A stretch of 28,918 bases of DNA from a virus (IMGVR_UViG_3300020042_001812:1-28918), one strand, 5' to 3'. Counted from the first letter of the stretch, positions 6,789 through 15,028 are shown. The notes: a model not told the origin generated them from the sequence alone. Translations and numbers: made by a program.

Positions 6789-7021
6789 TTATATCTATCT
6801 TCTCTAATTGCAATCTCAATAACATCTTTTAAATCATCACTAAGTAACTCAAATATATCCGCGCCATTTACCCATACCTCAACTAAATATACCAGTTCCG
6901 GTACAGCCGGCTCAATAACTACCCCAGCCTCTAATATCTCCGGCTCACTCGGCTCCCACTCGTACCAGCACTCCAGTGGCTGGCGGCAAAGGTCTGTAAT
7001 GTGTTCATGCATCAACTTCAT
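6785..7021 (-). CDS. Hypothetical acidic protein
   Basis: 78-aa ORF with ATGA overlaps on both sides. Confidence 0.65.
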   Translation of the reverse strand: MKLMHEHITDLCRQPLECWYEWEPSEPEILEAGVVIEPAVPELVYLVEVWVNGADIFELLSDDLKDVIEIAIREDRYK

Positions 7022-7686
7022 GCTGCTTCTCCTTGTAATGCCCTGCGGATTGCTTCGTGAGAAACAACTACCCCGTGGCTGGTTTTTAAAATACTCGAAA
7101 TCCCCCTAAACGAAATCCCTGTCGCCCTCATCTCTTTGGCGTATTTGAGTGCCGCCTGCTCCTCTGGCTTGGCCACCAGAATGGCTGCCTGACCAGCGCC
7201 CTGAATCACATACCCGAACTTGGCCGACCCACCCAGATGCCCTCCGGCCTTGCGCTTGGCCGCCTGACCCTGCTTCTGGCGCTCTTTGAGCACTCGGCGC
7301 TCATGGCCGGCAAAGCTGCACAAGATCTCCAGCATCAACTGCGCGTAGATGTTGCTTGAGTCAGTGACATCCCCGTGGCCGTTGATGATCAGCTTGACGC
7401 CAAGCTCCTTGCACCGCTTGATCGACTGAAGCGCATCCAGCAAATCACGGCTGAACCGATCCAGCTTCGCCACAATCACAGTGTCGCCCTGCTTGAGTGT
7501 CACTCCGTTGGCCTCCAGCCGTGCAAAGAAAGGGTCAGCGCCAGAGACGCCACCATCCTCAACAAACTGCTCGATCACCAGGTCGTGGCTCATCGCGTTA
7601 CCGCTGATCTGCCGCTTCTGCTCCTGCATGCTGGTGTTGTCCACCTGCTCCGTAGTAGAGACTCTTACATACCCATAGACTGTCAT
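7018..7686 (-). CDS. Small serine recombinase (resolvase/invertase, PinR-like)
   Basis: YGYVRVST catalytic Ser motif, EDGGVSGA, KLDRFSR, FAGHERRVLKER, short C-terminal HTH. AGGGAG RBS upstream of ATG 7686. Confidence 0.92.
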   Translation of the reverse strand: MTVYGYVRVSTTEQVDNTSMQEQKRQISGNAMSHDLVIEQFVEDGGVSGADPFFARLEANGVTLKQGDTVIVAKLDRFSRDLLDALQSIKRCKELGVKLIINGHGDVTDSSNIYAQLMLEILCSFAGHERRVLKERQKQGQAAKRKAGGHLGGSAKFGYVIQGAGQAAILVAKPEEQAALKYAKEMRATGISFRGISSILKTSHGVVVSHEAIRRALQGEAA

Positions 7687-7724
7687 TAGTTGCACTCCCT
7701 GTTAAATTATTGACTGACAAGGCA

Positions 7725-7752
7725 ATTATGTATCAGGTTGGCAGGTTGTCAA
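7725..7752 (-). promoter_or_regulatory. Sigma70-like promoter for the recombinase operon
   Basis: TTGACA-N16-CATAAT on the minus strand, preceded by an A/T tract (UP-element-like). Confidence 0.6.
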
Positions 7753-9334: not shown

Positions 9335-11494
9335 TCAGCCCTCATTACCAGCCCCTTGGCCCATTAAATTCCACGAATTGTTCTCCGCATCTGGTGCAAA
9401 TCGGCGCAGCACTGACAAGCCAATGGCCCGTTTAACATCGCCTTTTGATGATCCAGGCACGGCTGCATAAACCTCTGCCCAATCCAATTTATAGGCATCT
9501 GGGTGAGTGCGGCAGTCCTTCGGGGCGTTGGAGCCACGGCGAATCACCACCCCTTCGGGATGTTCATTGATGATGGACTGGACGAAAGCTGCCGCCGTGT
9601 CGCACTTATCCATGATCCTGAGCGACTTGTTGTCCTCGATTCGGGCGGCTGCCTCCTGCTTGCGTCTGGATTCAGATGTCGGGTATGGGATGACTGTGAT
9701 GCACTGGACATCCTGCATGTTGCCGTGACGGGTGAGGACAACCTCGTTGTGAATATGGGTCTGAAAGCTGATCTCTCTATGGATTGGCTCGTATCGGGTC
9801 TTGATTAGCCGCATAAACCTGTTCTTTTCCTCGTCCATGAACAGGATGGCAGTCAGGGTTGCATCACCTGTAAAGGCAGATGCGCCACGGGCCAGAGCGC
9901 TGTCGTCATTCGTTTGTGCGGTCTTGGCCGTGTGGGTGATGATCTTTATCGGGGTATTGAGTTGAGTGTAAATAGTCTGCTTGATGGCGGCCATATAACT
10001 GCCGACTTCAGAGTTATCATTCTCATTGTCTATTTCTAATGTTGCATTAGAAGTATCTATTATCAGGAATGGCCGTTCATTGGTTGTATGGCGTATGACA
10101 TTCTCTGCTAGGAGTAATATTTCCGGCACTTTGGAGCGTTTAGACTCAATCACAATAAACCAATGGGCGACTTCAATTGGGTCAAGATTCCAATACTTTA
10201 TATATGCATAAAGAGATTGTCTGACTTGATTGGCGTCTTCGGTGACATAGAGAATCTTTCTACGGGATTCTGTCTTTAATGGTGAGTCTGATAAGGTAAA
10301 TCCAGCGGCAATGAGGCAGACGGAGATAAGGGCTGTGGTTTTGCCCACACCAGGCTGCCCGGCTGTTACGGAAAAACTGTGGGCTAAGAATCCATCAATG
10401 AGATATTCAACGGGGTAGAGCTTGGTCAGGTCGAGGAAGAGTTCTTTCCAGTAGGGTAGGGGCTGGTCAGGTTGATCAACAGCGGCCTGCGCAGACTGGA
10501 TAAAGGTGGAGAAATCCTCGACTGCCGACTTGCGGTCAGCGGCCTTAGATGGTGGACTGTAGCCGCCAAGTTTTGCGTGATGGAACAGCGTGCCGATGGA
10601 GACGCCCTTACCTTGGTGGAATGATTTCCAGTGCGTGTCGATGTCCTGCTCGGACTTGTACTTCGCGCCTCGGATTGACCAGTTGTCCCACAGTTCGTAG
10701 CCTTGGGCGCCAAAGGCCGTGTGCAGCGCTTGGCCGATCTCAATCCAAGTGTCGTAGTCGCTGTCGGGGTTGATGAAGTACAAGGCCGCTGCAGCCTTGG
10801 AGTAATCATCAGTGGAGCTTGACAGGGTTGGCTGGTACTCTAGCTTTGGCCGTGGCACTTCAATTGGCTGGTTGGAGTTGTCCTGCTCAATGACCCCCCA
10901 CATGGTCAAGAGAGACAGCAGGTTGTCATGGGTTTCGTTGGACAGCTTGCCGGTCAGCTTGGAGCCTGAGAGTAAGACTGACTTGCCTGGTGATGTTGGC
11001 AGGCCAAACACCTCGATCTCTTGGCCGCCGCCTAATTTATATTTTGGCTTGATCTTGTCCAAGTCTTCATCAGCCACGAACAGAAAGACATGCCGGCCCC
11101 GTCCGGAGACGCTTACCTCCGTCAATTGATCCTGCTGCTTAACCCACTCAGCCATGCGCTTGATGGCAATGTTGGTGGCAGATGTGGAGTGCTTCATATC
11201 CACATCGAGGCAGACTAGGTACGCGCCTTGGCTCATGGCTGGGGTCTGCATCACGATGCCCAGATAGTTGCCGGCTGGCGCGGCGTTCATTGATAGCACC
11301 TCTGATGCGCTGTAAAGCTGATCTGGTGGAGTGTCACGCGCCACACCTTGGCCGCTTTTTTTGTATGGGATTTTCTTGCCATCGGCAGTGGTGGCGAATG
11401 TGCAGAACACTGCCTGTGGATGCTGCTCTATCAGCTTGACAGCAATGGCTTGTGAGTTTGAAAACTCGGTGTCGATTTTGGGTAAAATGCTCAT
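9335..11494 (-). CDS. Primase-helicase (AEP primase-polymerase, PriCT-2, AAA_25/RepA-like helicase)
   Basis: LVCLDVD and EVSVSGRGRHVF (AEP); DYDTWIEIGQALH...WDNWS...KY (PriCT-2); GQPGVGKTT Walker A, LIIDT Walker B, THTAK and RGASAFTGD. Confidence 0.9.
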   Translation of the reverse strand: MSILPKIDTEFSNSQAIAVKLIEQHPQAVFCTFATTADGKKIPYKKSGQGVARDTPPDQLYSASEVLSMNAAPAGNYLGIVMQTPAMSQGAYLVCLDVDMKHSTSATNIAIKRMAEWVKQQDQLTEVSVSGRGRHVFLFVADEDLDKIKPKYKLGGGQEIEVFGLPTSPGKSVLLSGSKLTGKLSNETHDNLLSLLTMWGVIEQDNSNQPIEVPRPKLEYQPTLSSSTDDYSKAAAALYFINPDSDYDTWIEIGQALHTAFGAQGYELWDNWSIRGAKYKSEQDIDTHWKSFHQGKGVSIGTLFHHAKLGGYSPPSKAADRKSAVEDFSTFIQSAQAAVDQPDQPLPYWKELFLDLTKLYPVEYLIDGFLAHSFSVTAGQPGVGKTTALISVCLIAAGFTLSDSPLKTESRRKILYVTEDANQVRQSLYAYIKYWNLDPIEVAHWFIVIESKRSKVPEILLLAENVIRHTTNERPFLIIDTSNATLEIDNENDNSEVGSYMAAIKQTIYTQLNTPIKIITHTAKTAQTNDDSALARGASAFTGDATLTAILFMDEEKNRFMRLIKTRYEPIHREISFQTHIHNEVVLTRHGNMQDVQCITVIPYPTSESRRKQEAAARIEDNKSLRIMDKCDTAAAFVQSIINEHPEGVVIRRGSNAPKDCRTHPDAYKLDWAEVYAAVPGSSKGDVKRAIGLSVLRRFAPDAENNSWNLMGQGAGNEG

Positions 11495-11520
11495 GTTGTT
11501 AACTTCGCAGTTGATGACAA
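11491..11520 (-). CDS. Putative 9-aa leader peptide (MSSTAKLTT) coupled to the primase
   Basis: AAGGAG 6 nt before TTG at 11520. TGA overlaps the primase ATG (ATGA). The primase ATG has no RBS of its own. Confidence 0.5.
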   Translation of the reverse strand: MSSTAKLTT

Positions 11521-11584
11521 ATTGTTCTCCTTCTGGAGTGATCCAGTTACCCCTGATGGTTCGCGCCGTCAGGGGTTTTTATTT
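11495..11584 (+). ncRNA. Predicted ~90-nt antisense RNA to the primase leader
   Basis: Plus-strand TAAAAT at 11483-11488 and a plus-strand terminator ending near 11584. Inference only. Confidence 0.35.
11549..11584 (+). terminator. Rho-independent terminator oriented opposite to the flanking genes
   Basis: ACCCCTGATGG-TTCGCG-CCGTCAGGGGT stem (one G-U pair on the plus strand) followed by TTTTATTT. Confidence 0.65.
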
Positions 11585-11596
11585 GGGAGGTTGATT

Positions 11597-12652
11597 CTAG
11601 TCCTTAGCCTTTTCCTTAACTAAGCTGGCAGCAGCATGCTTCTCACCGATCAGGTCATCGCTGATGGTGATGTCCAGCTTGGCAATGGCCGAAGGAGACT
11701 TCAGGTCAAATGCCTGTGGGTAGGATTTCAGAGCCTCGTAGGCCAAGGCATCACTCTTCCAAAACTTGGTTTTTCGCCCTGGGCGCAGTGTCCAGCCTTG
11801 GATGGTTGACCCCTCGGTGATCTGACGCTTGGCTGACTCCAGCACTGACTCAGACCACATGGCTGCAAGCTGGGCCAGTTCAATCATGTCAGGCGTAACG
11901 GCTGGCACGGCAATGGCGTCATCCTTGTCGGCCTGCTTCACGATGTCTGCAAACTCTTTGCGTGCGCTGTCTTGCACCTTCTGGCGCATGGACGGGCAGA
12001 TGGGCTTGGCCTTGCAGTAGCGGCAGGCACTGGTAGATGGGTTGGTCGGCGCATTATCGGTCAGGGCCAGGTTGGCGGCGGCCAGCAGGTCGTGGCCGTG
12101 CTTGATCAGGTCAGCACCGGAGACTGTCCACTTGCTGTGGCCGGCTCGGGGCTGGAATATGTGCATGGTGCATTGGATGGATGCAGGCGCATTCAACATG
12201 CGCATGACGCCGAGTGCGTAGGTCAGCATCTGCTTGTTGTCCTCGGCCTCGACCAGCACCCTGCCGGTTTTGAGATCGACCACATGGAGGTGGTCGCCGT
12301 CCACCAGCACGGCATCAGCAGTGCCGCCAAGGGCTTGGTGCAGGGGCTTGAGGCCGGCATCTACATTGACTTCGATCATGCGCTTACGGGGGTTTTCCAC
12401 CAGCGTGTTGATGAAGGTGGCGTATTCGTTGGCCATGTCAAAGTGATCGTCTGGGTAATCTTTGGGGTTGACTGCCTCGCCCCGTAGAATTTTTTCGGAT
12501 AGCTCATGGATGGCCGTGCCAATCGCGGCAGCCTCGCCGGCTGGCTCATAGGGCATCTTCTCTTCAAGCCGGTATGAGCCTGGACAGCTCATCACCCGAT
12601 CCATGCGGGATGCTGATAGACGGGCGTGTTTACGGATGGTGTGCTGAGTCAT
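11597..12652 (-). CDS. DUF2800 / Cas4-like PD-(D/E)xK exonuclease
   Basis: HARLSAS...CPGS, GTAIHE, GGTADA, VDLKTG, NKQMLTYALG, and a C-terminal CRYC...CP Fe-S staple pattern. Confidence 0.88.
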   Translation of the reverse strand: MTQHTIRKHARLSASRMDRVMSCPGSYRLEEKMPYEPAGEAAAIGTAIHELSEKILRGEAVNPKDYPDDHFDMANEYATFINTLVENPRKRMIEVNVDAGLKPLHQALGGTADAVLVDGDHLHVVDLKTGRVLVEAEDNKQMLTYALGVMRMLNAPASIQCTMHIFQPRAGHSKWTVSGADLIKHGHDLLAAANLALTDNAPTNPSTSACRYCKAKPICPSMRQKVQDSARKEFADIVKQADKDDAIAVPAVTPDMIELAQLAAMWSESVLESAKRQITEGSTIQGWTLRPGRKTKFWKSDALAYEALKSYPQAFDLKSPSAIAKLDITISDDLIGEKHAAASLVKEKAKD

Positions 12653-14234: not shown

Positions 14235-14798
14235 ATGTCTACTAGAGTTACAACCGGCGAGGTACGCACCTCTTATTTCTCAGGCTTGCAGTCTCGTAAA
14301 AATGAGATGAATGGCAAGGATGAGTTCTCCACTCAAATCCTGATTCCCAAGACCGACAAAGAAACCCTGATCGCGCTGAAGGCTGCAGCCAAAGAGGCAC
14401 TTGTCGCCAAGTTTGGTGACAAAGTGCCAAAGAATGTACGCAACCCACTCCGTGATGGCGACACTGAAACAAAGTCGGATGGGTCAGCGTTGGGCAAAGA
14501 GTACGCTGGCCACTTCTTTTGCAATGTCAAAAGCACGACAAAGCCTGGTGCTATTGACGCCCACGGCAATGACCTGATTGGCTCTGACGATATTGTCAGC
14601 GGCGACTATGTGCGGGTATCGTTGAATGCCTATGCTTATTCGCAAGCTGGCAACAATGGCGTCTCGTTTGGCCTGAACAACATCTTGTTGCTCAAGAAGG
14701 GCCAGCCGCTGGGTGGAGCCAAGCCAAGTGCCGCTGATGACTTCGGCATCGGAAAGTCGGCTGCACCTGTTGCCGCCGCTGAGTCCTCAGACTGGTGA
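14235..14798 (+). CDS. Single-stranded DNA-binding protein (DUF2815, T7 gp2.5-like)
   Basis: PLRDGD, SGDYVRVSLNAYAY...GVSFGLNNI...GQPLGG...AADDF, and an acidic/aromatic tail ESSDW. Confidence 0.9.
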   Translation: MSTRVTTGEVRTSYFSGLQSRKNEMNGKDEFSTQILIPKTDKETLIALKAAAKEALVAKFGDKVPKNVRNPLRDGDTETKSDGSALGKEYAGHFFCNVKSTTKPGAIDAHGNDLIGSDDIVSGDYVRVSLNAYAYSQAGNNGVSFGLNNILLLKKGQPLGGAKPSAADDFGIGKSAAPVAAAESSDW

Positions 14799-14981
14799 TT
14801 TTTGCTCAATCAGCTTGAGCAGCGCCTGCTCTAGTTGATTGACAGAACACCACAGAGGTTTGACAGTACCAGACATCCAGCGGCTGACCTGTGGCTGCTG
14901 GATGCCAGCCTCACGACACAGGGCGTTCATCTTGATGCCATGCGCCCTGGCCTTATCTCTAATGTCTTGTACTGATTGCAT
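14787..14981 (-). CDS. Cro/cI-type HTH regulator
   Basis: IKMNALCREAGIQQPQVSRWMSGTVKP XRE-type HTH. Divergent from the early operon. Confidence 0.8.
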   Translation of the reverse strand: MQSVQDIRDKARAHGIKMNALCREAGIQQPQVSRWMSGTVKPLWCSVNQLEQALLKLIEQKSPV

Positions 14982-14987
14982 AGGTCT

Positions 14988-15028
14988 ATTTTAACAAATA
15001 ATTGACTACTTTGTAAATAGTGTACAAT
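14988..15028. promoter_or_regulatory. Overlapping divergent promoters
   Basis: Minus strand TTTACA(15017-15012)...TAAAAT(14993-14988), 6 nt from the HTH ATG. Plus strand TTGACT-N15-TACAAT. Confidence 0.5.

Follow-up and report, generated by a model that had tools for sequence, protein, structure and literature searches.

A conserved, portable cassette predicted to place an antisense RNA over the leaders of phage primase genes

Antisense control of the replication initiator is textbook plasmid biology. In plasmid R1, where CopA/tap/repA governs copy number and incompatibility, the ribosome site of the initiator is hidden in a stem that is opened by leader translation. In the IncI system Inc/repY/repZ, translation of the initiator requires a pseudoknot. 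In phages, the nearest precedent would be N15, a linear plasmid prophage with partition genes, in which a short counter-transcript, inc RNA, covers the leader of the primase-helicase gene repA. In the literature searched, with most subscription papers outside its scope, we found no antisense RNA repressing a phage primase. In R1 (CopA/tap/repA) and IncI2 (AS RNA/repR/repA), a small antisense RNA stems from the initiator-mRNA leader, a leader-peptide frame overlaps the initiator start and repression acts via the leader (PMC8053102, partial text). ColE2 RNAI is complementary to the 5' leader of the gene for the Rep primase, and in Pseudomonas a self-contained control module, REx-C, has moved between rep genes that are unrelated and may or may not include a leader peptide (PMC5304414, partial text). 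On the Synechocystis plasmid pSYSA, a three-hairpin antisense RNA (asRNA1) lies over a small ORF (ssr7036) upstream of the primase-helicase Rep gene CyRepA1 (PMC9978351, partial text). Among phages, the short antisense RNA sar of P22 blocks translation initiation of the antirepressor gene ant; the word "primase" is absent from the portion examined of the 2025 phage small-RNA review that describes it (PMC12197685). PAK_P3 produces a short sense 5'UTR RNA before a primase/helicase gene (PMC10914365, partial text; for further comparison see PMC5415839 and PMC4825925). The locus analyzed here resembles R1 and IncI2, as those excerpts present them, in combining a predicted antisense RNA from the initiator leader with a leader ORF that has its own ribosome-binding site and overlaps the initiator start.

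The primase leader and its predicted elements

The window, a 28.9-kb virus record, encodes a portal protein, a terminase and a replication module. The studied region is the 102-nt gap separating a DUF2800 exonuclease gene from a primase-helicase gene (Table 1), and a DUF2800 gene adjoins the cassette in 75/112 cassettes among the matches listed. The bacterial genome collection yielded only three matches, one of them on a 13-kb contig binned as Burkholderiaceae, which is too weak for a host call. No integrase was seen among the window genes tested; a serine resolvase gene (7018–7752) is preceded by a near-consensus promoter (TTGACA-16-CATAAT). Of 46 loci, 25 have a resolvase within 2.3 kb, and the other 21 all belong to the distant clade. 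The complete relative MW202879 has a resolvase and no annotated integrase or partition gene. Elsewhere in the window (14787–15017, minus strand), a small gene for a Cro/C1-type HTH protein, preceded by an extended -10 promoter, converges on the gene of a ssDNA-binding protein.

The initial annotation had described a primase ATG lacking a ribosome-binding site, a perfect AAGGAG serving a TTG-started 9-codon ORF, and an overlap of the TGA of this ORF with the primase ATG. All of these were found in place, and no Shine-Dalgarno site was seen directly before the primase ATG. The ATGA overlap carries no evidential weight of its own: it follows automatically because primase codon 2 begins with A, so that only the choice of frame is informative. 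A terminator with its U-tract on the plus strand, opposite to the flanking genes, was confirmed, the minus strand having no U-tract after the stem. Hairpins 1 and 2 add to the features described before. Within the window alone such motifs do not exceed chance (2 terminator-like sites vs 2.4 expected); support comes from folding and conservation.

Table 1. Positions of annotated and predicted features in the window
Feature	Position	Strand	Remarks
Primase-helicase gene	9335..11494	-	719 aa; PriCT_2 + AAA_25, the only Pfam domains found; predicted target of the RNA
Predicted antisense promoter	11481..11488	+	-10 box TAAAAT at 11483-11488, G at -14 at 11481; inside primase codons 3-5
9-codon leader ORF	11491..11520	-	TTG start; TGA stop overlaps primase ATG (11494-11492)
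Hairpin 1 of predicted RNA	11494..11519	+	G-U-rich; complementary to leader ORF; 97.7% of cells paired
Predicted antisense RNA, about 88-90 nt	11495..11584	+	5' hairpin, anti-Shine-Dalgarno linker, small hairpin, terminator
Shine-Dalgarno site AAGGAG of leader ORF	11527..11532	-	6 nt before TTG at 11520-11518
Hairpin 2 of predicted RNA	11533..11546	+	Variable loop; two-sided change in 2/5 pairs
Intrinsic terminator	11549..11584	+	12-pair hairpin 11549-11576, then U-tract to 11584
Predicted sense -10 box TAGAAT for leader mRNA	11594..11599	-	Overlaps DUF2800 stop; no conserved -35
DUF2800 (PD-(D/E)XK) exonuclease gene	11597..12652	-	Upstream neighbor of primase gene

From this arrangement we infer transcription of both strands, pairing, repression and translational coupling, in which a cis-antisense RNA probably blocks translation of the leader and hence of the primase. 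The box in primase codons 3–4 would drive an opposite-strand RNA of ~90 nt ending at the terminator; by pairing with the primase leader, this RNA would occlude the Shine-Dalgarno site of the leader ORF, and primase synthesis, if dependent on re-initiation at the overlapping stop, would be shut off together with leader translation.

Predicted promoter boxes and RNA folding across relatives

Viral contigs gave 152 matching stretches, of which the best 79 loci were taken; the 75 with upstream DNA fell into a close clade (80–94% identity, 40 loci) and a distant clade (50–58%, 35 loci). Adding metagenome loci (best 80 of 166), genome loci and a second primase family gave a census of 183 entries, of which 20 were dropped for missing upstream DNA, leaving 163 loci and 124 distinct cassettes. 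Because the loci share ancestry and some contigs occur in two collections, these counts overstate independence and do not represent 124 independent events.

The plus-strand TAAAAT, claimed earlier to lie within the first primase codons, is there, and comparison strongly supports it as a box. Primase codons 3–4 read ATT TTA in 29/29 close genes, while a single codon is kept in just 2/39 other invariant Leu columns and 7/32 Ile columns; in the distant clade, codon 4 alternates between Ile and Leu yet always ends in TA. The box is preserved at silent positions and across Ile/Leu swaps alike. TAnnnT occurs exactly 6 nt after the ATG or GTG start in 116/124 distinct cassettes among the matches listed, as six box sequences (TAAAAT, TATGAT, TATAGT, TAAGAT, TAGAAT and TAAACT), and 98 of these 116 listed box-bearing cassettes have G at -14. 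Among control ORFs, neither TAnnnT at this position (0/177) nor the terminator (0/177) was found, and the primase alone among the 42 window genes combines the box with an antisense terminator. Locus L201 keeps the box in another reading frame, and insert-bearing loci keep it though the ORF there is a short dead end. The TTGAAA put forward as the -35 element (11458–11463, 19-nt spacing) is present; we rejected it, as only 5/20 distinct close relatives retain it. No -35 consensus was found across relatives for either the antisense or the sense promoter, while G at -14 is common, pointing to a likely promoter of the extended -10 type.

For the leader mRNA itself, a minus-strand TAGAAT over the upstream stop codon had been suggested as promoter. 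Its position holds: it is kept in 34/98 cassettes where the TAG ends no long ORF, and close-clade leaders are conserved from TAGAAT onward despite differing upstream DNA. The sense and antisense boxes converge at a distance of about 105 nt and, with the terminator, are the most widely retained parts, as would be expected if the unit worked by polymerase collision or promoter interference, the RNA being incidental and the terminator merely shielding the DUF2800 gene. We regard this as quite unlikely: hairpins 1 and 2 are kept with G-U-tolerant and two-sided changes, and other lineages have a 5' hairpin too, built from unrelated sequence, which suggests selection on the RNA.

An antisense terminator lies within 700 nt in 163/163 loci among the matches listed, the weakest at -16 kcal/mol (the search span being 700 nt for primases and 130 nt for control ORFs), and its stem has two-sided changes in both clades, in line with the covariation anticipated for it. 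Folding z-scores are -5.3 on the plus strand (11494–11590) and -3.4 on the minus strand (11494–11600). Across 28 close-clade sequences, the three helices are paired in 97.6% of cells, with two-sided changes in 4 pairs; hairpin 1 accounts for 6 pairs with a one-sided and 1 with a two-sided change. In the distant clade, 96.5% of cells are paired and the terminator has 6 pairs with two-sided changes. In loci L285 and L291, unrelated sequence adopts the same fold: a 5' hairpin spanning the leader ORF is followed by an open anti-Shine-Dalgarno linker, then a small hairpin and the terminator. Across relatives, the predicted RNAs measure about 60–94 nt and obey an invariant rule, starting beside the start codon and spanning the Shine-Dalgarno site.

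Hairpins over a leader could instead belong to the sense mRNA as a stabilizer or attenuator, with no antisense RNA made. The sense strand does fold, as its z-score indicates; it folds equally well or better in 3/24 lineage representatives, and sense-strand predictions for the distant clade include a basal helix and a hairpin that takes in the start codon. However, the U-tract exists on the antisense side only, the conserved opposite-strand -10 box would go unexplained, and stem cells in the antisense reading give G-U against A-C counts of 128/8 in the close and 113/0 in the distant clade (total 241 vs 8). The antisense strand also folds better in 51/51 distinct predicted RNAs of the two main clades, to which G/U-rich composition contributes. 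We therefore consider a purely sense-strand role very unlikely. For RNA evidence, four sequencing runs contain a small share of the region, all as contigs in which strand, ends and level are unreadable.

An antisense RNA could also act at the DNA level, the RNA or its transcription priming or opening a replication origin in ColE1 fashion. The site adjoins a replication gene, and mycobacterial prophages are reported to have RNA-based origins (PMC7157519, partial text); yet this phage has a primase of its own, a strong terminator would end the RNA, and the RNA's position follows that of the ribosome entry site, making this highly improbable. For an RNA directed at the primase leader, the antisense box, its strand, the terminator and the position over the ribosome entry site all have strong comparative support, the RNA itself being predicted.

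Probable leader coupling, exchange of the cassette, and inserts

The proposed leader-peptide coupling finds support in this lineage and fails as a general rule. Among the 40 close loci (best 79 of 152), 36 keep the frame, starting with TTG in 34 and ATG in 2, and in the other 4 a one-base shift places an ATG in frame with the primase. The primase start, which lacks a Shine-Dalgarno site, has a mean predicted unpaired probability of 0.62 over 32 close leaders. More widely, the 124 distinct cassettes among the matches listed comprise 42 with a coupled leader ORF, 50 with a direct start, 12 with an in-frame upstream start, 18 with an insert and 2 that are mixed or truncated; a direct or in-frame start is thus used in 62/124 listed cassettes, and coupling is not general. 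Distant-clade cassettes have another 5' hairpin, which lies over a Shine-Dalgarno site used directly by the primase GTG. In these comparisons, the leader ORF is one among several ways of linking the Shine-Dalgarno site to the primase. In distant-clade loci L044–L079, primase codons 5–8 are invariant in DNA and can pair with the Shine-Dalgarno/start region of the sense strand; an ATG in the primase frame, 9 codons upstream, has no ribosome site.

A 28-row primase tree places coupled leader ORFs on three separate branches (the window clade, L285/L291 and L201), a spread that may reflect one origin with losses. A window-type cassette also heads an unrelated Prim-Pol/PriCT_2/VapE primase (L179/L203), and in L209–L222 a 15-codon leader overlaps the start of a Prim-Pol/VapE primase. 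Because the unit heads two different primase families it is portable, and its sequences identify it as a conserved predicted antisense cassette exchanged between them.

In 18/124 distinct cassettes among the matches listed, an insert bearing a -10-like box of its own puts about 230–520 nt between the unit and the primase. Of these cassettes, 17 were read out: the ORF beneath the RNA is 9–52 codons long and ends before the primase, 15–16 nt short of it in the five closest. Since the insert cuts the unit off, direct primase control is impossible in these 18, and since such loci retain the cassette, direct control is not the sole reason why it persists. This persistence is what an RNA acting mainly in trans would predict, as an anti-Shine-Dalgarno sRNA on host or other phage mRNAs for which the overlap with the primase leader is secondary. 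An anti-Shine-Dalgarno stretch between hairpins agrees with such a role, as do weak Rfam matches in two relatives, to the Betaproteobacteria toxic sRNA (29.8 bits, cut-off 50) and to suhB (28.5, cut-off 41). Against it, the window RNA matches neither family, the 5' part varies freely among lineages while the position beside the start codon is fixed, and no second target appeared in the window (4 matches with 2 mismatches vs 2.5 expected). Action chiefly in trans is, in our view, unlikely, and control of the adjoining leader is preferred.

Inserts contain a new sense -10-like site together with either an int-alpA RNA or another structured stretch and a small gene. The int-alpA motif (RF02996) lies between cassette and primase on the plus strand at 577–642 in L273, L275 and L276 and at 577–641 in L280 and L283, scoring 35.5–38.3 bits against a cut-off of 35.8, which 3/5 loci tested pass; inserts of this type have their own -10-like box, and a 33–35-codon ORF runs through the motif in six loci. 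The second type, just after the antisense -10 (L204–L208, L215, L217–L221, L274 and L282), consists of a -10-like box, a ~130-nt conserved structured stretch ending in a U-run and a small gene, several being Cys-rich, followed by the primase; no Rfam match was found in the 5 loci tested. Separately, a near-perfect long inverted repeat lies just behind the primase in L244 (2884–2963), L282 (2842–2920) and L283 (2845–2923); it gave spurious miRNA matches and is possibly an origin or a terminator.

Sequence patterns were also tried as markers. The SD-start-ATGA-ATTTTA pattern was rejected, since 24 of its 31 loci were unrelated and without antisense terminator, so that it is not diagnostic alone. 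The TAGAAT/A-tract pattern hit 120 loci, 68 of them matching this primase and the rest mostly chance matches. An unrelated GC-rich phage (L091, from position 601 on the plus strand) has a similar TAGAAT/A-tract/hairpin/Shine-Dalgarno unit in front of an ORF that is Cys-rich and nuclease-like. The cassette is absent from cultured phages with distant primases, 0/6 having both box and terminator, and no cultured model was found for this reason.

Possible replication control and comparison with known systems

Both the RNA and its target would scale with genome copies, and the unit would be expected to exert negative feedback on replication initiation and to act in trans on co-infecting phages sharing the cassette. 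Such feedback fits a lytic or carrier state, and plasmid-style copy control is possible. A more far-reaching idea is doubtful and offered tentatively: these small aquatic phages, rather than being repressor-controlled integrated prophages, might maintain a plasmid-like state or limit their own replication through an RNA-only copy-control module swapped between unrelated primases, with the cassette sequence defining incompatibility or superinfection-exclusion groups. If confirmed, the mechanism would mean that a widespread uncultured phage group meters DNA replication with a portable RNA switch, and could bring to light a life style that is plasmid-like or self-limiting; with 120+ natural variants among the matches listed, it is directly testable by reporters.

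Several systems share parts of this design. The R1-like antisense/leader logic suggested at the outset is borne out in layout and leader overlap, with no homology to CopA or to catalogued plasmid RNAs; no Rfam family, these included, reached gathering score in window positions 11000–12000. Unlike R1 and IncI2, the phage cassette has no Rfam match, targets a PriCT_2/AAA_25 primase-helicase, has its promoter inside the initiator gene and has a leader ORF that is dispensable in most relatives. With its promoter inside the initiator gene, the predicted RNA would extend over the entire leader ORF together with the Shine-Dalgarno site of this ORF. A portable module over the 5' leader of a primase-type initiator, with an RNA that is here predicted, also recalls the available accounts of ColE2 RNAI and REx-C; in contrast to these, the cassette resides in phage genomes with capsid and terminase genes and heads a gene with Pfam domains PriCT_2 and AAA_25 only. 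In the plasmid collection, no homologue covered more than 80% of the primase length.

With pSYSA asRNA1, the cassette has in common three hairpins, a small ORF and a downstream primase-helicase, whereas the partial text on pSYSA (PMC9978351) describes a plasmid, an RNA of ~150 nt and a proposed control of a primer, and shows no coupling. The resemblance to the excerpted description of P22 sar is that of a short phage antisense RNA, here predicted, at a translation start; the target differs in being a primase, and only the terminator hairpin matches the sar family (RF00262; 15.6 bits vs a cut-off of 43). The suhB and Betaproteobacteria toxic sRNA families leave the window unmatched, and their best relatives (28.5/41 and 29.8/50) fall below gathering score. 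The lack of an annotated partition gene sets MW202879 apart from N15. The cassette is a member of none of CopA/tap, IncI2, ColE2 RNAI or REx-C by homology tests, but its predicted mode of action is like theirs.
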